From Candidatus Micrarchaeota archaeon (lineage in GTDB: Archaea; Micrarchaeota; Micrarchaeia; Anstonellales; Anstonellaceae), in contig JAOAJY010000003.1 of the NCBI GenBank assembly GCA_026413965.1, positions 27,727-91,726 on the forward strand: a stretch of 64,000 nucleotides of DNA, in the 5' to 3' direction. Positions 2,483 to 63,667 of this stretch are shown here, piece by piece. The notes beneath the pieces were generated by a model, which did not search any database, was not told the origin of the DNA, and was given only the letters and a program-made list of their open reading frames with translations. Each line of letters opens with the position of its first letter. The first letter of the stretch is position 1. The translations under genes and the position numbers were made by a program.

Positions 2483-2845
2483 TCACAAAATCTTTTGCGC
2501 AAGAAGCTCTGCGTCCTTTTGGGAAAGAGACTTTGAGCGGATTTTTTCAGCCTGCCTCTTTGCCTCGCCTATTATTTTCCCAACCTGCTCGTCAGTTTCC
2601 TGGCGAGCCTTGGCAAGAGCCTCGTTTTTTGCCTCAACAGACTTTTCTGAAGCCTTGGCTGCTATCTGGACCGCCTTTTCCCTTGCTTCTGCTTCTATCT
2701 GCGCAGCTTTCTTTTTAGCCTCTTCAATGATGGACTGGGCATTTGCCTCAGCCTGCTTGAGCGCATTTATCTGAGAAAGGAAGTCGTCTGCATGCGCATG
2801 GCGGTGCGCGTTGGCTTTGGCTGAAGCATTGCTCACTTGACACAC
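2483..2845 (-). CDS. atpH: A-type ATP synthase subunit H
   Basis: 120 aa, a single long Ala/Glu/Lys helix (INALKQAEANAQSIIEEAKKKAAQIEAEAREKAVQIAAKA). First gene of the H-I-K-E block. GTG start with GGAGAGGTG upstream; an alternative GTG lies at 2836. Confidence 0.7.
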   Translation of the reverse strand: MCQVSNASAKANAHRHAHADDFLSQINALKQAEANAQSIIEEAKKKAAQIEAEAREKAVQIAAKASEKSVEAKNEALAKARQETDEQVGKIIGEAKRQAEKIRSKSLSQKDAELLAQKIL

Positions 2846-2916
2846 CTCTCCTGAAAAGATGCAAAAGTGCCACTAATACGATACATTTGTTTTTAAATCT
2901 GCCGTTCGGCGGCTTT

Positions 2917-4866
2917 TCACTGAGGCTGGGGAGGCGGATTGGGCGGAGGAGGCGGTGGTGGGAATTTTTCGTTTATCAGCTTCAGCACATTTTCCTCATT
3001 ATAAACAAAATCCTTTCGCTGGCTTGCCTCTTGCAAAATAGCATTCTGCTGGTCTGGAGTCAGCGCGAAAAATTTGGCGGCTGCATTATTCTGGTCGGAA
3101 GAGCTGTAAGTTCCAATAAGGAATGCGTCAAGGCTGACGTAGTTTGAACGGAGATTGATATTCACGATGTCCCTTATGTATTCAATGACTTTCTTGCCGT
3201 CAATTGATGTGAAAAGCTCAATCGCAGTTTGAGGGTCATCAGCATCCCTTGCCAAACAAGTATCTGTTAGTTCCTTCAATGCTGATGTTGAGTAAGATGG
3301 CAAGGAGATGTTGGAGAAGAGTTCTAAGTCCAGGTCGTCAGAGTCCGGAACGGTTATTTTTCCGAGCCCGAGCTTAACCATTTCCATTCTAATATGGTAG
3401 TTGATTAAATAATAAAGCGGCTTTTGGTCAGCCAAATCTTTAGGGACGATTGTGGCAAATTCCTGCGTCTCTTTGTTCCATTTGCTATTGATGAAAACAG
3501 CAAGATCGTTCAAATCATCTTCGCCAAAACTAACTTTTATAAAACCAAACCTCCACCACCAATATCCCTTAAGCACCCCATCTGCTTGGCCAGAAAGCGA
3601 CCAAGATTCAATTTTGCCATTTTCATCGAATTTGGGCACTATAAATCCGCTTTTGTAGAGGAAATCGCATATTTTTTCGTTTCCAATCAGGAAAAGGTTG
3701 CCAACAAAATCCTCCCCAACCCTAAGCGGATACTTTCGGGCATGCTCCATCAATTTTTCAACAGAATACAAGCCTGATTCGTCTTTTATGCCCTGTATGC
3801 CATTTATGAAGTTTTTGAATTTGCTTTTTTGGCTCTCATCTTCCAAATTAAAACCAAAAAATCTGGCAACCGCTTCCACTTTGGAATCCCCAAGAAAATC
3901 ATCGAGATTGGCGTATTTCCCTTTCTGTTTTTGGACATCCAAAGCATCCTGGCTGGAAAGAAAGCTGCGCATGGCAGCCAGCAGCTTGGAATTGTCAATG
4001 CTTCCGCTATCGCTGTGTATGTCCTGAGACTTTGCGTACTCCATAAATTTGTCTCTAAGCCCAAGCTCATCTATTTTTGCAAGTTCATCCTTGACCTCCT
4101 GCAAGCTTGGGTCTTGGCTGTTCTTCAATCCATCCAAATATGCCCCATCCAGGACCGCTTTTGAAGGGGCGCTTGATTTTTCAACAAAAAACTCCGATGC
4201 AGTATGTGAGATGCTGCTGAGCCACATCGAGTGAAACCGCTCTCCGTTTCGGCTGCTTGTTGTGGCTTGAGCAAGAAAGCCCTGCCTGATGAACTTGTCC
4301 ACGAAATTTTTCGCTTTTTCCTCAGGAGTGCTTCCTTGCAAATCTGAAGGGCTCACCATGCCAAGATATTTTTGCCCCCTATAAGCCTGCGGAAGCAGGG
4401 CATGAAAAACCGCTTTTTGATTGGCATCCATGGACTGGTGGTTCCAATCCGCATTCAGCACCCCAAGCTCCTTCATCTTAGAGAGCGCCATATTTGCATA
4501 CCGCTCTGCAATGTCCGCATTTATCCGCAGGTCTTTGAAGCGGAACTGCGAGCCTGAGCGCTCATCCATTGAAACTAGTGCAACAAGAAGCTCAGGGGAG
4601 TTTTGGAGCAAGTATTCCAGAGTTTTGTACTGCCCAGGGCGCCTCTCCATTTGATCTAGGATGCCCAAAACAAGATCTTTGTTTTTGTCGCTAAGCAGGC
4701 TTTGGATGTAATTGAGCCCTTTTATCTCAGACTCAAGGGCTCTTTTGCGCTCCTGGCTTGGAGGGGAAGCGGAATTATGAAGCTCCTGAAGCCGGATATT
4801 GATTTGGTGATTCAATTGCTGTTCAAGCTCGCTTATTTTTTGGGCATTCGCCTGAAAAGCCAGCAT
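2917..4866 (-). CDS. Hypothetical 649-aa protein with C-terminal polyproline tail
   Basis: Long ORF with no TM segment or signal peptide. N-terminal coiled-coil-like segment (ISELEQQLNHQINIRLQEL). Ends KFPPPPPPPNPPPQPQ. No family recognised. A hand-counted sample (3421-3520) is 40 % GC versus about 52 % in flanking genes. Confidence 0.75.
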   Translation of the reverse strand: MLAFQANAQKISELEQQLNHQINIRLQELHNSASPPSQERKRALESEIKGLNYIQSLLSDKNKDLVLGILDQMERRPGQYKTLEYLLQNSPELLVALVSMDERSGSQFRFKDLRINADIAERYANMALSKMKELGVLNADWNHQSMDANQKAVFHALLPQAYRGQKYLGMVSPSDLQGSTPEEKAKNFVDKFIRQGFLAQATTSSRNGERFHSMWLSSISHTASEFFVEKSSAPSKAVLDGAYLDGLKNSQDPSLQEVKDELAKIDELGLRDKFMEYAKSQDIHSDSGSIDNSKLLAAMRSFLSSQDALDVQKQKGKYANLDDFLGDSKVEAVARFFGFNLEDESQKSKFKNFINGIQGIKDESGLYSVEKLMEHARKYPLRVGEDFVGNLFLIGNEKICDFLYKSGFIVPKFDENGKIESWSLSGQADGVLKGYWWWRFGFIKVSFGEDDLNDLAVFINSKWNKETQEFATIVPKDLADQKPLYYLINYHIRMEMVKLGLGKITVPDSDDLDLELFSNISLPSYSTSALKELTDTCLARDADDPQTAIELFTSIDGKKVIEYIRDIVNINLRSNYVSLDAFLIGTYSSSDQNNAAAKFFALTPDQQNAILQEASQRKDFVYNEENVLKLINEKFPPPPPPPNPPPQPQ

Positions 4867-4989
4867 GCGGCACTCACCTTATTGAATTCTGAAGAAAAAA
4901 TATTTTAATTAGTGGCGTACAGTGGATTTGGAATTTGCCTAAGCGCAAAAAGGCAAGCAGATTAAAAGTGTTTATTTCCCAATCCTTGC

Positions 4990-6954
4990 ATGCAGGATTT
5001 TCAGAGCAAAGAAGGAAAGAACAAGGCTTCTGGAATGGCTTATGGCGAGGCCAAAAGGATTATTGATGGTGCCGGTTTTTTGCAAAGGCCCTCTTGCCCT
5101 GATGCGGTAATCCGCGAGGCAATCAAGGCGAAAAATCCAAGGGAAGCTGCCGGAAATGTGAGATCGGCTCTTGACAAAATAGCAAGGTTTTCAGGAGAAA
5201 GAGCAAAACATGCTTTTGGCGCCCTTGAAAATGAGGATATTGCAAGGCTGTTTGTTTCAAATCCTAATGCTTTTGCCGACATCGCAAATGCGGTTGGAGA
5301 GAATGCAGAAACTGTTTTTTACGCCCTTAACACCAAGGCAATAAAAGAGATGTTTGAGAAGAATCCTAAAGAATTAGCCTGGGCATTAAGCCAGATTGCA
5401 AAAGCTGGCGGAAAGGATGCTTTTCGCTTTTTCTATCTTCTTTTTGACGAAACATACGCTAATATGCTAAAAAATAATCCTGAGGCGATGGTTGAAACGT
5501 TTTTTGAAATTGCAAAGGCAGACCAGCAAGGTTTTGACACTCTGATTATTATGGGTGCTCTTAGAAATGAAAGAATTCAGGCTTTGTTTGAGAAGAAAAG
5601 GCGCAAAACGGTAAAAGCCCTCATTGATGTTGCAATGAAAATGGGGCAGGATGCCTGGCGCGCTTTTGACGCCCTTGCGAATGAAGCAGTTCCAGAGAAA
5701 TTTTTTGAGGACTACCTGGAAGGCAAAAAATCGTTTGAATGCTTAACCTTGGCAATAAAGAGCTCAGACACATATGCAATAGAGGTTGGAAGAATGCTTG
5801 ATGATCTGCACGACAACGAGCCTGCAAGAAGGAAATATCTTGCCTCTCTTTCAAAAGAAGATGTCCTTGCTTTGCTTCTTTCCAATCCAGAGTTTTTCTA
5901 CACTTCCACCAACCACATGCTTTTTGACCGCCTCAACAAAGATTTCAAGCCAGGAGAGCTTGCGGAATACTTGAAGAATATTGGGGTTGAAGGCACAGAA
6001 TTGCACAGGAACCTGATTTTCAGGGCGATAAACTATGACAGGCTATATGGAAAGAAGAACTCAATTTTCAATGGAGAGAGCCTTATCAGCATCTTGGACA
6101 GCCTGCTTGCCCCCCTGAATTCTGGATATGACGCAAGATATTACTATTTGCTTGCTAATGCTCTTGAAAGATTTGACGAGAAAAGCAAACGCTATATAGC
6201 AAAAAAAATAGTCCGGGAACAAGCCAGGATGATTTCTTCCTCTGAAGAGAAAGACGAAAGAAAATGGGTGGCCTTGAATTTCCTTATCCGGAATATGAAC
6301 CAGCAAGAGAAAAACGTGTTTGACGCAAGCAAGTATAAAGACAGAGACGGCAAGCTGCTTGTGGTCCAAATATTTGACAAGGACGACACTGGAAAGGACC
6401 ATTGGTTCCTTTCGCAGAAATGGTTCTCCAAATACGCAAAGCCAAAAAAAGGATCAGATGGCGAGCTGATATATGAAACGGCAGATGCAAGAATTGTGCT
6501 TTTCATGGGGGAGACGGAAAAGGACAACCAGGACTTTTTGAGGAAAATTCTTGACAGAGCCGATGGATTTATTTTGGCTTTCAGGGGGCACAGCTACAGC
6601 CTCAAGCGCAATATCCCTCCTGAGATTTTTGGAAACCTGAAAAAGGATGTGCTTTTTATTCCAGGAAGCTGCGGAAGCTCAGCAGCCATTCCTGAATACA
6701 TGGACACCAATCCGAACACGGCATTTGAGTTTATTGCGAATACCTCAACTGGAAGGGGGCAGGTGACTAACGCTCTTTTGGAAATTCTGATCAGACAAGC
6801 AGCAAATGGAAAGAAGATAACCGTTGAAGAAATAATAAGGAGCAACTCGATTGCTATCCAAAAGAACGGAGGAGACCCTGAAACCCTCTGGATAGGCACT
6901 TTGGGTGAGAAGCTCATAAAGCATGTCAATTCGGCAGGCTATTTTCCGGATTAG
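4990..6954 (+). CDS. Hypothetical 654-aa protein: NP-motif helical repeats plus alpha/beta-like C-terminal domain
   Basis: Contains 4-5 copies of a roughly 35-aa helical repeat (LFVSNPNAF, MFEKNPKEL, MLKNNPEAM, LLLSNPEFF). The C-terminal part has GFILAFRGHSY and VLFIPGSCGS. No family recognised. Sample 5401-5500 is 38 % GC. Confidence 0.75.
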   Translation: MQDFQSKEGKNKASGMAYGEAKRIIDGAGFLQRPSCPDAVIREAIKAKNPREAAGNVRSALDKIARFSGERAKHAFGALENEDIARLFVSNPNAFADIANAVGENAETVFYALNTKAIKEMFEKNPKELAWALSQIAKAGGKDAFRFFYLLFDETYANMLKNNPEAMVETFFEIAKADQQGFDTLIIMGALRNERIQALFEKKRRKTVKALIDVAMKMGQDAWRAFDALANEAVPEKFFEDYLEGKKSFECLTLAIKSSDTYAIEVGRMLDDLHDNEPARRKYLASLSKEDVLALLLSNPEFFYTSTNHMLFDRLNKDFKPGELAEYLKNIGVEGTELHRNLIFRAINYDRLYGKKNSIFNGESLISILDSLLAPLNSGYDARYYYLLANALERFDEKSKRYIAKKIVREQARMISSSEEKDERKWVALNFLIRNMNQQEKNVFDASKYKDRDGKLLVVQIFDKDDTGKDHWFLSQKWFSKYAKPKKGSDGELIYETADARIVLFMGETEKDNQDFLRKILDRADGFILAFRGHSYSLKRNIPPEIFGNLKKDVLFIPGSCGSSAAIPEYMDTNPNTAFEFIANTSTGRGQVTNALLEILIRQAANGKKITVEEIIRSNSIAIQKNGGDPETLWIGTLGEKLIKHVNSAGYFPD

Positions 6955-7499
6955 AGCCCAAGCTCCCTTATTATCCTTGAAGTCTTTGCCATGCGCTCGT
7001 CTGCCCTCACGCCAACAAGATGCACTGATTTGCATGGGGAGGGAAGTGGAAACGGCTTTTGGTCGTAGCCAAATGCCACTATGTCAGGGCCCACTCTCCA
7101 AAAAGTCTCCATGATGTCTTTTGAGCCTATTATCGCCAAATCCACAGGCTTGAGGCAGGAAACCATGGCGCGCCTGTATTCTGATGGGTGGATGGGCTTC
7201 TTGCCCTTCAATTTCTCCACGCGCTCATCGGTTGCGACCACCACCACAAGCAAGTCTGCAAGCTTCTTTGCCTCCTGCAAGGTGAGGATATGCCCAATAT
7301 GAAGGACATCAAAAACTCCGCCGGTGAGGCAGACCTTGAAGCCTTCGCGATGATGCTTGGCAAGCCAATATCTTCCGCCTTCGCGCCTCTCCAAAGCCTC
7401 CTTGTCTTCTCTGCTCAGCTTGGAGTATTCCTCTTGGCTTATGCCATTTTCTTTGACAGACAGAAGGTAAAGCTCCTTTGCGTCCATAAAACCACGCAA
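6951..7499 (-). CDS. ribL: Cytidylyltransferase-family protein, archaeal FAD synthase RibL-like
   Basis: Core GGVFDVLHIGHILTLQEAKKLADLLVVVVATDERVEKLKGKKPIHPSEYRRAMVSCLKPVD matches the RibL/TagD nucleotidyltransferase pattern (HxGH). About 55 extra N-terminal residues. Confidence 0.65.
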   Translation of the reverse strand: MRGFMDAKELYLLSVKENGISQEEYSKLSREDKEALERREGGRYWLAKHHREGFKVCLTGGVFDVLHIGHILTLQEAKKLADLLVVVVATDERVEKLKGKKPIHPSEYRRAMVSCLKPVDLAIIGSKDIMETFWRVGPDIVAFGYDQKPFPLPSPCKSVHLVGVRADERMAKTSRIIRELGL

Positions 7500-7501
7500 A
7501 T

Positions 7502-8812
7502 CTAAGGATAGACGCGGTTTATCGTGCGAGGAAATGGTATGGCGTCGCGGATGTGGTCAAGGTTCAGCATCCACTTCACAAGCCTCTCTATCCCAAGGCC
7601 GAAGCCAGAGTGGGGGAATGGGCCGTATCTTCGCAGATCTATGTACCACTCGTAATCCTTGGGGTTGAGGTTGTTCTCTTTCAGCCTGCGCATAAGCTCA
7701 TCATACTCCCAAATCCTCTCTGAGCCGCCGATTATCTCTCCGTGAGCCTCAGGCGCAAGCACATCGGCGTTCAGGACCGTCCCTGGATTGCTTGGGTCCT
7801 CGCGCATGTAGAAGGCTTTGATTTCTTTCGGGAAATTGGTGACAAAAACGGGCTTCTCCTCGTCTTTTGTGAGCAAAGCCTCCTCATCTGCGCCCAAATC
7901 CTGTCCCTTTTTGATGTTTGCCCCGCTTCTTGCGGCGATTTCCACCGCTTCCTCATAAGTCATCCGCTTGAAGGGAGCACGCACGGCTTTGAGCTTTTCA
8001 GGCTGCCTGCCTATAGCCAAAAGAAGGTCAGGATGGCTGTCTGCCATTTTTTGGCAAACGTACTCCAGCATGCGCTCCTGAAGGCGCATGTTCATCTTCT
8101 GGTCGTAGAACGCCATCTCAGGCTCCAAGTGCCAGTACTCGCACAAGTGCCTCACTGTCCTTGAAGGCTCTGCCCTGAAAGAGGGGGCAAGCACATAGAC
8201 GTTTTCAAGCGCGGTGGTGAAAACCTCAGCATAAAGCTGGCTTGACTGGGTAAGGTAGGCTTTTTCCCCAAAATAGCTTATCTCAAAAAGCGTGGAGCCG
8301 CCTTCGCAGGCTGCGCCCGTGATTATGGGCGGGGCAAGCTCCCAGAATCCCTCCTTCTCAAAAAACTCCCTAAGATAAAATATTATCTTGTGCCTAGCTT
8401 TCATTATGTTGGTGAGGCGCTGGCTGCGCAGCCATAGGTGGCGCGTGTCCAAAAGGAACTCTACTGACTGGTCCTTTGCGATTGGGAAAGGCTCGCCTTG
8501 AGCCACTAGCTTCACAGATGAGGCGGAAATTTCGTACCCGCCCGGAGCCCGCGCGTCCTGCTTCACAACCCCCTCCACCAATATGGTGGATTCTATGTAT
8601 GCCTGGGAGGCTGAAATGAACGAGCTTTCCCCTACTGCATCCTTTTTGATTGCGCACTGCACTACGCCTGTGGAGTCGCGCACCACCAAAAAGCAGATGC
8701 CTCCGCTGGTGCGGCTTCTGTGCACCCATCCGCGTATCCTGACTTTGCTATTCGTGAGGGAACCTGAGAGTATGCTCCCAATCTTCGCAAAATCGGTCCC
8801 CAGCGCGTCCAT
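7502..8812 (-). CDS. asnS: Asparaginyl-tRNA synthetase
   Basis: 436 aa, class IIb. Motif 2 is FRAEPSRTVRHLCEYWHLEPEMAF. The C-terminus HSGFGLGIERLVKWMLNLDHIRDAIPFPRT resembles the AsnRS ending (IPFPRT) rather than archaeal AspRS (FPRD). Confidence 0.85.
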   Translation of the reverse strand: MDALGTDFAKIGSILSGSLTNSKVRIRGWVHRSRTSGGICFLVVRDSTGVVQCAIKKDAVGESSFISASQAYIESTILVEGVVKQDARAPGGYEISASSVKLVAQGEPFPIAKDQSVEFLLDTRHLWLRSQRLTNIMKARHKIIFYLREFFEKEGFWELAPPIITGAACEGGSTLFEISYFGEKAYLTQSSQLYAEVFTTALENVYVLAPSFRAEPSRTVRHLCEYWHLEPEMAFYDQKMNMRLQERMLEYVCQKMADSHPDLLLAIGRQPEKLKAVRAPFKRMTYEEAVEIAARSGANIKKGQDLGADEEALLTKDEEKPVFVTNFPKEIKAFYMREDPSNPGTVLNADVLAPEAHGEIIGGSERIWEYDELMRRLKENNLNPKDYEWYIDLRRYGPFPHSGFGLGIERLVKWMLNLDHIRDAIPFPRTINRVYP

Positions 8813-8851
8813 GGCATTACCTCCGAATTGATAAGGAAGAATAATATAAAA

Positions 8852-10051
8852 TCACCATCCATAGTATTTTGCCCGAGACTTGCCAAGCGCCTCCATGGCA
8901 GGCACGAACCCTTTTGCGAAAAAGCCAGGGGCGTTCAGCAGGACATTCAGCCCGACTTTGAGCTTGCCTGCCCAGCTTATTGAGGTCAAGTTTTTTGGTA
9001 TCAATTGCCCTATCTTGCTCAGCTCTTCATCCGAAAAATTGTAGAATGCCTTCTTGCCAAAGACCAGCTTTGAGTAATCCGGGAACTCCGCCCTCCACAG
9101 CCTTTCATACTCTGACAGGGCGGCTTTGTCAGTCCTCCCCCTGTGCAAAGCCTTGGCTGCTACCTCGGATGCGAACTTTGCCGAAGACATGGCAAGGCTG
9201 GTCCCGCCCTCAAACATGGGAGAAGTGAAGCCTGCGGCATCGCCAACCAGAAGCAGGCCATCTGAGTAGGTGTTGGCGACAGGCCCTGAGGCAGGAATCA
9301 TGCCCCCGAATGCCACCTTTCCCACTTTTCTTTTCTCCCTAAGCCCGTATTCGTCAATGAATTGCTCCAAATATTTTCTGGTGCCAGGCGGGTCATTTGT
9401 GACCAATCCCACATTCGCCCGGCTGCCCTTTTTTGGTATCACCCAAAGGTAGCCGTGCGGAGCCAGCCTGGGCCAAAGGAAGAAGTCTATGAAGCCATCC
9501 GATTCGATTGGGGAAAGCTCATACTGCAGCCCGACCACTGTCTGCGGAGGCTGGTTTAGGCCAAGCAGCTTTGAGGCCACGCCTGCCACTCCTGATGCGT
9601 CAATTATTATCTTCGCCTTATATTCGCCTTGGGTAGTGGAGACTTGCCACTTGCCATCATTTCTGGCAAGCCCGCTGACTCTGTGCCTGGTCTTGTAAGC
9701 CGCTCCAGCCTCTTGACCAAGCTTTGCCAAAAAGCGCTCAAACTTCTCCTTTTCCAGCGTGAAGCCTGGCTCCTCAATGTAGGAATATGAGCGGTTGGGC
9801 CATATCACCCTGATGCCTTTTGCCCTCATGGAGATTGCCTCCTCTGGAAGCTCAATCCCCAGCCTTTGGACAGCAAGCAGGGAGAGGCACTCACCGCAGT
9901 GCACCGGCTCGCCTATGCGCTCATGCTCCTCGAAAACCACAGTGCGCAAGCCTGACTTTGCGGCAGAATATGCCGCGTATGTGCCTGCAGGGCCGGCGCC
10001 AATTATTGCGATGTCAAACTCTTCCATCATTTCCCGATTTGGCTGAATCAA
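8852..10051 (-). CDS. Geranylgeranyl reductase family flavoprotein
   Basis: 399 aa. N-terminal FAD fingerprint FDIAIIGAGPAGTYAA. Later LLVGDAAGFTSPMFEGG is typical of archaeal GGR. Confidence 0.8.
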   Translation of the reverse strand: MIQPNREMMEEFDIAIIGAGPAGTYAAYSAAKSGLRTVVFEEHERIGEPVHCGECLSLLAVQRLGIELPEEAISMRAKGIRVIWPNRSYSYIEEPGFTLEKEKFERFLAKLGQEAGAAYKTRHRVSGLARNDGKWQVSTTQGEYKAKIIIDASGVAGVASKLLGLNQPPQTVVGLQYELSPIESDGFIDFFLWPRLAPHGYLWVIPKKGSRANVGLVTNDPPGTRKYLEQFIDEYGLREKRKVGKVAFGGMIPASGPVANTYSDGLLLVGDAAGFTSPMFEGGTSLAMSSAKFASEVAAKALHRGRTDKAALSEYERLWRAEFPDYSKLVFGKKAFYNFSDEELSKIGQLIPKNLTSISWAGKLKVGLNVLLNAPGFFAKGFVPAMEALGKSRAKYYGW

Positions 10052-24777: not shown

Positions 24778-24803
24778 GTTTGGCTCTTATAGGGGGTTCA
24801 GAC

Positions 24804-25622
24804 ATGGACAAGAGATGGCTGATTGGGATCGGCATCTTGGTTCTTCTTGCCATTGCAGTTACTGCAGTTCTATTCTTTTCCGGCATGGGGAATTATCATT
24901 CTGGAATGGCTGAAGCTTACGATAGATATTATGGGACTATGAGCCGTTACTCTGCAAAATACTCTGCTTATCTGTCAACTCTTACTCCTATCTACCAAGG
25001 TTCGGCATCTAAGGAACTCCAGTTATATGTTAACTATAGATCTGTCGCTAGCTTCAATGAGTCAGAATCAACCACCGTTTATCGCACTATCAATGTGACT
25101 CAGTTTAAACCAGATTTAATTACCAGAATTTTGCTCTTCTTCAATAAGACTGAAGCTCAAGGAAAAGATCAAAACCTTAACTATGTTCTTGGCGAGAAAA
25201 TAGTGGGCCACGGCACCAACCGAGCAGTTTTTGAAGAGCAAGACTACCAAGATATACGGGAGAAAGAAAGTACACCTACTGGCACACTCGAATTAAAACA
25301 GGTTACTGTCAGGGTTTATGATGATCCGCTTTTCAAAGAGGATTATAATGTGGTAGTGAACTTTGATTTTAACCATGAGATAATGATGGCCGGCAACGAT
25401 CCATACCTTCAAGTCTCTGGAAAAACCTTTGTGCCCCTGCGCCTGTCTCGCAATTCAACGTCATTTGCCTACATAGTACCAAAAAGCGATTGGACAAACA
25501 ATATCACCCTAAGCTTTAGGGTAAGGGATTTTGATGCTGAGGAAAAGAGTGGCGGATGGCAGATCACTCAGCGCGATGAGCTGAATGTAACTTTATCTGA
25601 GTTTTTGAGCCGAGCCTCCTAA
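24804..25622 (+). CDS. Hypothetical membrane-anchored protein, atypical composition
   Basis: ATG at 24804 after AGGGGG. N-terminal TM WLIGIGILVLLAIAVTAVLFF. No family recognised. Sample 24901-25000 is 42 % GC versus 52 % for 24301-24400. Confidence 0.7.
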   Translation: MDKRWLIGIGILVLLAIAVTAVLFFSGMGNYHSGMAEAYDRYYGTMSRYSAKYSAYLSTLTPIYQGSASKELQLYVNYRSVASFNESESTTVYRTINVTQFKPDLITRILLFFNKTEAQGKDQNLNYVLGEKIVGHGTNRAVFEEQDYQDIREKESTPTGTLELKQVTVRVYDDPLFKEDYNVVVNFDFNHEIMMAGNDPYLQVSGKTFVPLRLSRNSTSFAYIVPKSDWTNNITLSFRVRDFDAEEKSGGWQITQRDELNVTLSEFLSRAS

Positions 25623-34797: not shown

Positions 34798-36153
34798 GTG
34801 AAATTTGCTCAAAAGCAACCCTTAAAGCCAACCCAGAATGGGAATGGAAACCGAATGAGAGTTTTTCCGCCCGAGCCGGAGATAGAGAATTTCAGGAAAG
34901 ACATGCAGGAATGCATGCATGAAATGGCTGTTGCGCACAAGCAAACAAAGGGCATGGTGGCGGTTTTCGGCTCCTCGAGATGCAAGCCAACCGACAAGAA
35001 CTACCAGATTGCGCAGGAGACCTGCTTTGAGCTTGGAAAAGCAGGATACGGGATAATAACAGGAGGCGGACCAGGAATCATGGAGGCTGCAAACAAAGGG
35101 GCTATTGAGGCAAAAGCCCCATCAGTTGGCGTGCAGCCGAAATTCTTAAGCGAAAAAGAGCAGGCGATGGAGATTGAAGGGAAAACTCAGTATTATGTAT
35201 ACTCCATGCACTCGCGGAAGGTGTCAATATCAGCCAACAGCTCTGCCATGCTTTATTTTCCTGGCGGATTGGGGACGATGGATGAGCTTTTTGAAAACCT
35301 CACTCTTTCGCAGATTGGCAAGATGAAAGGAGTGCAGCACATACTTGTAGGAAGCATTGACTATTGGAAATCCCTATTGAAATGGCTGGAAGAGCAGCCA
35401 TTGAGAAGGAAATACCTGAGCCATTCGGATTTTGGCTTGATTAAGCTTGCCGAAAGCCCAAAGCAGGTGGCGGAGCTTGTCAAGCAAAGCCAGGCAAAAA
35501 AGGTTCTCCACAGCGCGCAGCAGCTTGCGGAATGGTTCGCAGAAGACCTGAAAAAATGTAGCCAGCAGCTTGGGATGGTCTTTCACCCATCTGTGAGCAT
35601 ATTTGGCTCGTCAAAAATAAAAAGCGCAGACAGAATTTATGGCGCTGCCAAAAATCTTGTCAGCAAGCTTGCCCAGATGGGATTTGCCATTTACAGCGGA
35701 GGAGGAAGCGGCATAATGGAAGCGGCCGCAAAAGGAGCCTTGGAAGCAGGAAAGAAAGCTTATGGCTTGATACCTTTCTTTTTCTTTGAAAGAGAAAAGC
35801 CAAATCCGCATGAGTGCAACCATATCCAGCTCAACATGATGGCTTCCAGAAAGCTTGTCCTTGGCTCAAGCGATGCCCTTATTTTCTACCCTGGAGGATA
35901 TGGAACATTGGACGAGATGTTTGAGTTCGCAGTGAGGCAGCAGATAGGGGATATGAGGCAGGTGCCTATAGTCGCTTTTGAAAGCCGGTTTTGGGGAGGG
36001 CTTTACAGCTGGCTGGAGAGGTATCCTGTGGAGATGAGCCTCATGCCCAAAGAAAGCCTGGATCTCATAAAAATTGTCAATAGCCCAAAGAAGGCTGTCG
36101 AAATCATCTTAAGCTGGGAGGAATCTGGCGGCGAGCAGAGTAGAAAGGAATAA
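34798..36153 (+). CDS. Tandem LOG/TIGR00730-family protein (two Rossmann LOG domains fused)
   Basis: Domain 1 has VAVFGSSR...GIITGGGPGIMEAANKGA...PGGLGTMDELFE. Domain 2 has VSIFGSSK...AIYSGGGSGIMEAAAKGA...PGGYGTLDEMFE. GTG start; an alternative ATG lies at 34855. Confidence 0.8.
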   Translation: MKFAQKQPLKPTQNGNGNRMRVFPPEPEIENFRKDMQECMHEMAVAHKQTKGMVAVFGSSRCKPTDKNYQIAQETCFELGKAGYGIITGGGPGIMEAANKGAIEAKAPSVGVQPKFLSEKEQAMEIEGKTQYYVYSMHSRKVSISANSSAMLYFPGGLGTMDELFENLTLSQIGKMKGVQHILVGSIDYWKSLLKWLEEQPLRRKYLSHSDFGLIKLAESPKQVAELVKQSQAKKVLHSAQQLAEWFAEDLKKCSQQLGMVFHPSVSIFGSSKIKSADRIYGAAKNLVSKLAQMGFAIYSGGGSGIMEAAAKGALEAGKKAYGLIPFFFFEREKPNPHECNHIQLNMMASRKLVLGSSDALIFYPGGYGTLDEMFEFAVRQQIGDMRQVPIVAFESRFWGGLYSWLERYPVEMSLMPKESLDLIKIVNSPKKAVEIILSWEESGGEQSRKE

Positions 36154-36187: not shown

Positions 36188-37645
36188 TTGAGGGCTGGGC
36201 TTGCTTTTGCAGCTTTGCTTTGTTTTGCAGGCTTTGGATTCGCAGGATTGCTTGAAGACTTCATGGCAAAAAGCTTTGAGCCTGGCATGGAGGTTGAGGC
36301 AAAGCAAATTGCTTCTGGCAGCCATTACATAATAATTCTGGATGGGAAAGAGGCCTATTTGTTTGACAATTCGGAGGGCAAGCCTGTTTATGACCGCAAA
36401 AGAATCATAGGCATCCTTGAGGAAGGCGAGAAAAAGGCTGCAGGCTATGAGGACAAGAAAAAATTGGCCATGAGCCTGCCTGCCGCAATCAATGCCGCCA
36501 AAAACAAGACTGAAGCCCAATGCATGCTTTTGACTGGCACAGACATGCACGAATGCAAAGACAAGCAGACCTGCGTGCTTGCCTGCATGTCCAACCCAAA
36601 CTGCGCAACGCCGCTTTATTCTGATGGATTCTGGGAGGCTTTGCTTGACTGGAGCAGCGCAAGGAAAAGATATGCGGAGCTTTTGGCAAAGTACCAAGAG
36701 GGGCTTGAGGATGCATTGGGGAAGCCTGAGGCGATTGATGAGAAGACGGCGATAGTTTCAGAGCTTCAAAAAATTGCCCAAAACATTTCCCAAAACCCGC
36801 TTTTTTTGAACAGGACGGATGAGGGATGCAGCGGCGCAAAAGTGGCAAGAAGGTGCTATGAGTACTGCCCAAAAATAGACTATTCTGCTTCAAGGCTGCA
36901 GGAAGGGAAAAAGAGCTTGGAGGCAATCAAGGAAATTTTGCTTTCTGCCCAAAAGCAGGCAGAAAGGGCAGATGCCATCCTCAGCCAGAGCGCCAAGCAT
37001 GACGAATACCTAGCAAGGCGCATGAAAGATTTTGCTGAGCTTAGGGTGAAGCTGGCAAACAGTGTAAGAAAAGCCAATATGACATCAAAAGAGCTTGCTT
37101 TGAAGGTGAAAGATGAGGAAGTGGCTCCTGCTTTGAAGGACCTTGAAAATTACACAGCCAAAGTCATTGAAGCTGGGGATTCTGGGAGATACCGCCAGGC
37201 TTTCAGGATGGCTGAGGAGCAGCAGAGAAAATATGACGAGCTTAGCCGAAAGATGCAAGCCGGCTTGGAGAAGCACCAGCAGGCAATTGAGAGGATAGAT
37301 AAGGCGTCTGAAAAAATCAAAAAGAGCAGCTGGCTGCTTGGGAATGAAACTTCCTCTGAGCAGCTGGCAAAGCTTGAAGCCATGAGGCAAGAGCTTCTTT
37401 CTGCCCCTGCAACCTTGCAGAAGATAGCCGAGCTTGATGCGAAAGCAGCGCAGATAGAAAATGAAGTGAACTTGGCCATTTCCCAGAAGGCAACTGAGAT
37501 AGCTTCAGGAAACGAGTCCCTGCCGCCAGAGGCATTGAAAGAAGTTGCCTCAAGGCAGTTGGCAAAAGGCGGCGGGCTTCCCTGCCTTCCTGCAATCGCG
37601 CTGGCCGCAGTGGCCCTTGTGGCTTTTGCTTCAAGAAAGGATTAG
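36188..37645 (+). CDS. Secreted coiled-coil protein with C-terminal TM anchor
   Basis: TTG start after GAGGTGA gives the signal peptide MRAGLAFAALLCFAGFGFAG. A Cys-containing N-domain is followed by a long coiled coil. Ends GGGLPCLPAIALAAVALVAFASRKD. Confidence 0.7.
   Translation: MRAGLAFAALLCFAGFGFAGLLEDFMAKSFEPGMEVEAKQIASGSHYIIILDGKEAYLFDNSEGKPVYDRKRIIGILEEGEKKAAGYEDKKKLAMSLPAAINAAKNKTEAQCMLLTGTDMHECKDKQTCVLACMSNPNCATPLYSDGFWEALLDWSSARKRYAELLAKYQEGLEDALGKPEAIDEKTAIVSELQKIAQNISQNPLFLNRTDEGCSGAKVARRCYEYCPKIDYSASRLQEGKKSLEAIKEILLSAQKQAERADAILSQSAKHDEYLARRMKDFAELRVKLANSVRKANMTSKELALKVKDEEVAPALKDLENYTAKVIEAGDSGRYRQAFRMAEEQQRKYDELSRKMQAGLEKHQQAIERIDKASEKIKKSSWLLGNETSSEQLAKLEAMRQELLSAPATLQKIAELDAKAAQIENEVNLAISQKATEIASGNESLPPEALKEVASRQLAKGGGLPCLPAIALAAVALVAFASRKD

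Positions 37646-63591: not shown

Positions 63592-63667
<76 letters not shown>

Follow-up and report, generated by a model that had tools for sequence, protein, structure and literature searches.

A two-gene insertion beside the ATP synthase operon of a Micrarchaeota archaeon and a possible cysteine-dependent enzyme family of DPANN archaea

We analysed a stretch of 64,000 nucleotides (nt) from a Candidatus Micrarchaeota archaeon (contig JAOAJY010000003.1; hereafter the window, to which all positions refer unless another locus is named), and in particular two long genes, here called A and B, that lie head to head beside the operon of the A-type ATP synthase (ATPase). An initial annotation, made from the DNA letters, had predicted the pair, and both open reading frames (ORFs) are found exactly where it placed them, in the ORF list and in the translations. 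Between a cytidylyltransferase-like gene and the ATPase promoter, a compact lineage-specific insertion extends from about 2899 to 6950. On balance it is probable that the insertion consists of two unrelated, independently transcribed genes and not of a conserved two-component system, and that B belongs to a stand-alone, usually leaderless family restricted to the Micrarchaeota and further DPANN archaea. The elements of the insertion, with their content of guanine plus cytosine (GC) where needed, are:

2917-4866, minus strand: gene A, ORF of 649 amino acids, 100 % identical to NCBI MCX8197964.1 (N3F07_02090, 'hypothetical protein')
4867-4989: A-B spacer, 123 nt, 37.4 % GC, with putative divergent promoters
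4990-6954, plus strand: gene B, ORF of 654 amino acids, 100 % identical to NCBI MCX8197965.1 (N3F07_02095, 'hypothetical protein')
5137-5709, plus strand: helical-hairpin repeats of B (residues ~50-240), about five copies of ~37 residues, xNPxxFxxIAxxxGxxxxxAFxxL (consensus of alignment A1, and DSSP)
5737-6294, plus strand: all-helical middle domain of B (residues ~250-435), strongly conserved
6325-6939, plus strand: α/β domain of B with six strands (residues ~446-650), β1-α-β2/β3 hairpin-α-β4-α-β5-α-β6-α

The delimitation of the insertion depends on the genes and the promoter at its two sides, which are:

289-549: c-subunit gene (PF00137), left flank
584-2470: AtpI (PF01496), left flank
2483-2845, minus strand: conserved gene for a protein of 120 amino acids, first of the ATPase operon, no Pfam match
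2861-2898, minus strand: promoter of the ATPase operon, ATTTAAAAA and ATTAGTGGCAC separated by 12 nt
6951-7499, minus strand: cytidylyltransferase-like gene (PF01467), right flank
7502-8812: AsnRS, right flank
8852-10051: geranylgeranyl-reductase-like (GGR) flavoprotein, right flank

ATPase loci were fetched from GTDB genomes with AtpI as the query, and the flanking genes of the window were placed there by tblastn. In the loci L007-L018 the genes for GGR, AsnRS, the cytidylyltransferase, the 120-residue protein and AtpI are colinear and on one strand, and where longer flanks were available (L014, L015 and L018) a Memo-like gene and further genes of the window are colinear as well. The stop codon of the cytidylyltransferase gene is 60-330 nt from the gene of the 120-residue protein in these loci (about 1.1 kb in L015), and neither A nor B is present within 10 kb of the junction in any of them. 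In at least 10 related Micrarchaeota genomes the cytidylyltransferase gene and the ATPase promoter are direct neighbours, and in L014, L016 and L018 the cytidylyltransferase stop codon lies immediately in front of the promoter. The window keeps this promoter 18 nt downstream of the stop codon of A, which gives the left edge of the insertion, and at the right edge the stop codon of B overlaps that of the convergent cytidylyltransferase gene, the two having 4 nt in common. With the promoter at one edge and the overlapping stop codons at the other, the insertion consists of A, the spacer and B only, about 4.05 kb. The initial annotation had spoken of an island, and what lies there is indeed an islet of deviant composition, which the relatives L007-L018 lack.

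The junction has also been interrupted elsewhere. The next-closest genome, L015 (AtpI 64 % identical), carries a different insert of 1.1 kb at the same place (8545-9628 of that locus), with two small ORFs on opposite strands (132 and 136 amino acids) that are unrelated to A and B. This different insert shows the cytidylyltransferase/ATPase junction to be a variable site, and it looks like a site of recurrent gene gain.

The base composition of the two genes deviates from that of the window. The GC content is 45.2 % in A and 43.3 % in B, as compared to a mean of 51.4 % (standard deviation 2.7) over 51 long ORFs of the window, which corresponds to z values of about -2.3 and -3.0, and at third codon positions it is 49.8 % and 45.5 % against 58.4 ± 4.7 %. 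The dip reported earlier is therefore real, but the values of 40 % and 38 % that had been counted by hand were wrong. Low GC is seen throughout the B family: its genes are poorer in GC than the other long ORFs of their own contig in 16 of the 17 loci where this could be tested, with a mean difference of -5.2 points over all positions (Wilcoxon p = 3e-5) and of -7.8 points at third codon positions (p = 8e-5), and their GC follows that of the host (48 to 62 %). The deficit of B in the window, -8 points, falls inside the range of the family. Since low GC is a trait of the B family, it is not evidence of a joint arrival of A and B. The trait possibly comes from weak codon selection or from the amino-acid make-up of the proteins; low expression and repeated transfer are further conceivable causes.

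The spacer was described in the initial annotation as A/T-rich with two TATA-like boxes, and these are found at 4895-4911 and 4960-4977. The centre of the first box is about 36 nt upstream of the ATG of A, with a GGTGA 9-13 nt upstream of the same ATG, and the centre of the second (TTAAAAGT, 4962-4969) is about 25 nt upstream of the ATG of B. Judged by their positions, the boxes would represent two ordinary back-to-back promoters of the archaeal type, one for each gene. A box this close to the ATG implies a leaderless mRNA, and the B transcript is probably leaderless, as far as can be read from the sequence. In most of the B homologues whose start is clear, a TATA-like box precedes the ATG by 24-32 nt (about 27 nt), and because the homologues elsewhere have a TATA box of their own, B appears as a self-contained transcription unit. 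A scan for sigma-70 promoters and terminators was set aside as uninformative for an archaeon.

The ATPase promoter next to A has a conserved form, TTTAAAAA followed after a gap of 11-12 nt by GAATTAGTGGCAC, which is found upstream of the gene of the 120-residue protein in L004 and L007-L018. This gene lies immediately upstream of AtpI in 16 loci, and by its position its product is probably subunit H of the ATPase. The promoter is strikingly conserved, although AtpI is only 52-74 % identical across these Micrarchaeota. The conservation exceeds the TATA box, which suggests an initiator, a 5' untranslated region or a regulator site. Furthermore, the 9-mer ATTAGTGGC has exactly two copies in the 64-kb window, one at 2869-2877 on the minus strand in the ATPase promoter and one at 4908-4916 on the plus strand in the spacer, the latter pointing towards B, where about 0.5 exact matches would be expected by chance. 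ATTAGTGGC and the TATA-like box are not equally far apart at the two sites, and the coincidence may be due to chance or to a common regulator site.

The protein encoded by gene A is acidic (isoelectric point 5.2) and mostly helical, with a coiled-coil-like helix in the N-terminal and a proline-rich C-terminal tail. An exhaustive HMMER search of 1.84 billion cluster representatives gave a single homologue, P0040, which matches residues 446-633 with 42 % identity (E 9e-32). This fragment lies at one end of a contig of 3.3 kb (L004, GCA_038895505.1), and after it come, on the same strand, a gene for 116 amino acids, AtpI and AtpK, an arrangement like that of the window. In both genomes that carry A, the gene therefore directly precedes the ATPase promoter. 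L004 is the closest genome, with 73.7 % identity in AtpI and 67.5 % in the 120-residue protein, and the identity of only 39-42 % in A shows that A diverges much faster than its neighbours. The GC content of the homologue in L004 (41.6 %) is the same as that of the genes around it (42 %).

No further relatives of A were found in the GTDB species genomes, the JGI metagenomes, IMG/VR or PLSDB, and neither A nor B has a significant match in Pfam, NCBIfam, PHROGs, PADLOC or the sequences of the PDB, which agrees with the earlier statement that no known family could be assigned to either protein. The description of both as orphans holds for A, with its one partial homologue, but fails for B, which has 80 or more relatives. 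A word-seeded search with A gave no match at all, not even A itself, which is an artefact of the database: the 90 % cluster of A (P0057/P0058; L117) has as its representative an unrelated peptide of 35 residues, which comes from a Logan contig with 34 % GC that shows no similarity to the window, and because of this representative A is missed by searches that use cluster representatives. The poly-proline tail is a possible cause of the mis-clustering. An AlphaFold2 model of A, built from an alignment of two sequences, was unusable (predicted local distance difference test, pLDDT, 58) and its Foldseek matches were meaningless. A appears to be a young, rapidly diverging gene that is present only in this genome and in its closest sequenced relative. 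From its helical, coiled-coil and proline-rich character one might guess at a structural or adaptor role.

The situation is different for B. A word-seeded search returned 39 full-length homologues (E 1e-49 to 1e-206, 32-55 % identity), which are labelled nearly all as Micrarchaeota, Anstonellales or Burarchaeum, and one as Diapherotrites. A scan of metagenomes added 29 loci, and a profile of the C-terminal domain another 16 fragments, including one from Iainarchaeota and one of 117 amino acids binned as Pseudomonadota. The family thus has at least 80 members, all of them from DPANN except the fragment binned as Pseudomonadota. The weakest member in the profile search has an E-value of 4e-34, after which nothing follows up to 0.01, and this cliff shows the family to be sharply bounded, without detectable distant relatives. 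An attempt to reach annotated relatives by iterating the profile of the C-terminal domain returned only members of the family. B has no relatives among the viral contigs of IMG/VR or the plasmids of PLSDB, and no publication on the family was found among the titles and abstracts of the literature on DPANN and Micrarchaeota protein families and structure annotation. No transmembrane helix or signal peptide had been noticed in A or B, and this stands, as no 19-residue window exceeds 1.13 on the Kyte-Doolittle scale and neither N-terminus is signal-like; B is predicted from its sequence to be a soluble, cytoplasmic protein.

Among ORFan islets of reduced DPANN genomes the insertion would be a mixed case. 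The similarity is that a small, GC-poor insertion of hypothetical genes breaks a conserved synteny, and that A is fast-evolving and nearly without homologues. The difference is B, which is a well-conserved, phylum-wide family with a confident fold.

We examined 36 B loci of other genomes and metagenomes (L001-L003, L005, L006, L086-L114, L115 and L116) and clustered the neighbouring genes all against all. None of these loci has a homologue of A, no neighbour family occurs in more than 4 of them, and there is no common large divergent partner. Neighbours that recur include P-type ATPases (4 loci), AAA_14/DUF4143 ATPases (L096, L099, L101 and L116) and housekeeping genes, among them GluRS, DnaJ, SOD, RibD and the Suf operon. 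It was also possible to observe two B paralogues on one contig: those of L098 are in tandem, and those of L096 and of L101 have an AAA_14 gene between them. The tandem paralogues of L098 (1242-7308) are long, 1033 and 941 amino acids. The genes with AAA_14 and DUF4143 beside B are located at 909-2174 in L096, 1701-3041 in L099, 7635-8900 in L101 and 4537-5757 in L116; the association is weak (4 of 36) and may only mark variable regions of the genomes.

These loci bear directly on the proposal of the initial annotation that A and B are a co-acquired two-component module. If the two were co-regulated and their products cooperated, one would expect them to travel together, and co-occurrence in other genomes is what the annotation itself had named as a check; it was not found in any of the 36 loci. 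A and B do make up the whole insertion, head to head around one spacer of 123 nt, and both are GC-poor, but the promoter of B is its own throughout the family and the low GC belongs to the family as well. A is 42 % identical in the closest genome, as compared to 53-55 % for B in more distant contexts, which implies that A evolves much faster. Nor are the two remote paralogues, a possibility that was tried and rejected (BLASTP E 0.66, hhalign probability 0.5 %). The proposal is not supported by this comparison, and a head-to-head arrangement with a common low GC is insufficient to call two genes a functional module; we regard a cooperating module as quite unlikely. Some observations nevertheless weigh against two independent genes. 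The loci with the closest B homologues, L003 and L005, are cut on the upstream side by the end of the contig, and L004 ends inside A, so that the contigs of the two closest B homologues and of the sole A homologue all break at or near the junction. A pairing of A and B that is confined to the very closest lineages is hence conceivable. Also, an insertion that holds exactly A and B fits a single acquisition event.

Two further explanations of the insertion concern its origin and its neighbour. The segment could be the remnant of a mobile element, a virus or a defence islet beside the ATPase operon, as it interrupts a conserved synteny with an atypical GC content at a junction that has received another insert in L015, and as B has an AAA_14/DUF4143 ATPase beside it in 4 loci and a ParE toxin in its vicinity in L116. 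There is, however, no integrase, no tRNA and no flanking direct or inverted repeat at the insertion, the repeats that exist being short and at chance level, and the nearest tRNA of the window is at 63593. Neither A nor B contains a mobility domain in Pfam or in PHROGs and PADLOC, neither has relatives in IMG/VR or PLSDB, and the neighbours of B in other genomes are mostly housekeeping genes, which makes a mobile origin very improbable in our opinion. It is equally hard to believe that A serves the ATPase operon as a lineage-specific accessory gene, for example one for an assembly or regulatory factor. A reads in the direction of the operon and directly precedes it, and this position is kept in the only other genome that has A. 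The operon, on the other hand, keeps its own conserved promoter downstream of the stop codon of A, at least 12 related ATPase loci lack A, and A diverges far faster than the ATPase subunits. Two unrelated genes with separate transcription, the reading given at the outset, accommodate these observations best.

The architecture of B was studied in an AlphaFold2 model built from alignment A1, which contains 29 sequences of the family and was also used for the conservation analysis. The model has a mean pLDDT of 89.4 and a predicted template modelling score of 0.83, and residues 18-435 are all helical. The first part of this region is formed by the helical-hairpin repeats, which are also reflected at the DNA level in the repeat family D1. 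Their copy number varies between the members of the family, which are 550-1087 amino acids long, and the only sequence matches of the repeats in the PDB are designed helical-repeat proteins. The XPC-binding/STI1-like domain (PF09280) has no match in B of the window; Pfam scores for XPC-binding (PF09280) and HP1451_C in three longer homologues were rejected, since they are sums of short repeat matches of which no single stretch passes. In the middle domain S298, P300, F303, S306, N308, L311, D313, N341, F344, R345, Y349, R351 and N390 are invariant.

The α/β domain, which is Rossmann-like, has its own set of conserved positions. Q460, D466 and T467 are invariant after β1, and M506-G507 after β3. 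The strand predicted at 526-532 (β4) is followed by an invariant F-R-G-H534-S (codon of His534 at 6589-6591), and the strand at 553-557 (β5) by an invariant P-G-S-C561-G-S (codon of Cys561 at 6670-6672), with a helix directly next. After β6 comes S-T-G-(R)-G-Q-V-T-N, residues 586-594. The invariant residues consequently cluster at the C-terminal ends of the strands, and in Rossmann-like domains it is at the C-terminal strand ends that ligands are bound and catalysis takes place.

An invariant histidine and an invariant cysteine after consecutive strands make a thiol-dependent enzyme the most economical interpretation of B, and we tentatively suggest this as its most likely mechanism. In such an enzyme Cys561 would be the nucleophile, situated in a Gly/Ser-rich strand-turn-helix that resembles a nucleophile elbow, with a second invariant glycine-rich loop close by, and His534 would act as the general base. 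As substrate one would expect a peptide or a ligand with a phosphate group, which the glycine-rich loops would hold and the helical repeats would present, and the N-terminal repeat array could be a binding scaffold for the substrate or for a partner. That the B family as a whole constitutes an unrecognised class of cysteine-dependent enzymes in DPANN, with a new α/β catalytic domain (His534/Cys561) and an expandable helical-repeat recognition module, is a still more doubtful proposal.

The closest parallel to such an arrangement can be seen in the clan CD cysteine peptidases (separase, CHAT, caspases). As in these, long helical repeats precede a C-terminal α/β domain, and in the predicted strand order of B an invariant His after one β-strand is followed by an invariant Cys after the next, 27 residues on. 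In the hhalign alignment ILFIPGSCGS of B is set on KLFIIQACRG of caspase-3, non-significantly. Unlike clan CD, none of the 29 B members matches Peptidase_C14, CHAT or Peptidase_C50 (Pfam, E <= 10), the motif is GHS and not HG, and the topology of the β2/β3 hairpin looks more Ras-like. The same Pfam scan of the 29 members gave no peptidase, GTPase or other catalytic family. The motifs of HAD (DxDxT), vWA-MIDAS, receiver domains, LOG/SLOG (PGGxGT) and PTP (Cx5R) were compared by eye and rejected, as none fits the conserved positions.

The main alternative to a thiol enzyme is that the C-terminal domain of B is a degenerate, small-GTPase-like (TRAFAC-type) binding domain, that is, a nucleotide-binding, regulatory or scaffold module, and it draws on the structural comparisons. 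Foldseek with the B model found nothing significant in the PDB or BFVD, and the top matches in both libraries are Arf, Arl, Ran and Rab (probability up to 1.00, TM-score 0.44-0.51). The best in the PDB are Arf/Arl GTPases with E 0.04-0.3 and target-normalised TM-scores of 0.42-0.51, and the best in BFVD are Ran and Rab with E >= 0.23. The order of the elements in B, β1-α1-β2/β3 hairpin-α2-β4-α3-β5-α4-β6-α5, corresponds to that of the Ras-like G domain, and two invariant glycine-rich loops precede helices. B differs from the Ras/Arf GTPases, however, in that it lacks G1 and G4 motifs and any profile similarity, and has the invariant RGHS, GSCGS and STGRG instead. Of 28 members, 1 has a P-loop GxxxxGK[ST] and 3 have NKxD, not at conserved positions, no Foldseek E-value is below 0.04, and G domains contain nothing that corresponds to the invariant His and Cys. 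We therefore consider a degenerate GTPase-like domain unlikely.

Several results weigh against the thiol enzyme too. The best structural matches are the Arf/Arl GTPases just mentioned, and caspase-6 appears only at rank 47 (E 0.35, TM-score 0.39). The profile of the C-terminal domain had 0 matches to PDB sequences at E <= 10, and neither sequence nor structure searches linked the α/β domain to any enzyme family. A comparison of the domain profile by hhalign gave a probability of 0.09 % for caspase-3 and 0.2 % for Arf1, the latter of which speaks against a GTPase. Finally, the placement of His534 and Cys561 was read from the order of the predicted strands, and their proximity in space is putative.

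A protein of 650 residues that is kept across the Micrarchaeota, sometimes in two copies, in very small genomes probably has an important role. Should the B family represent a new class of enzymes, the fact that the minimal genomes of these symbionts retain it, frequently as several copies, would indicate a role that defines the lineage, for example in the processing or modification of proteins. With a confident fold and a few invariant residues (His534, Cys561 and the STGRG loop), and no annotation in Pfam, NCBIfam or the PDB, the thiol-dependent enzyme is a hypothesis that can be tested.

Some other genes of the window deserve mention. The gene with the lowest GC content (42.3 %, and 42.0 % at third codon positions) is at 24780-25622 on the plus strand and encodes 280 amino acids without a Pfam match. 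At 34798-36153, also on the plus strand, there is a gene for a protein of 451 amino acids in which two regions are of the SLOG type: the N-terminal half (residues ~53-226) matches Lysine_decarbox/LOG and SLOG cluster 4, and residues 264-354 give a DprA-like match. It is followed at 36188-37645 by an ORF of 485 amino acids, which has no Pfam match.

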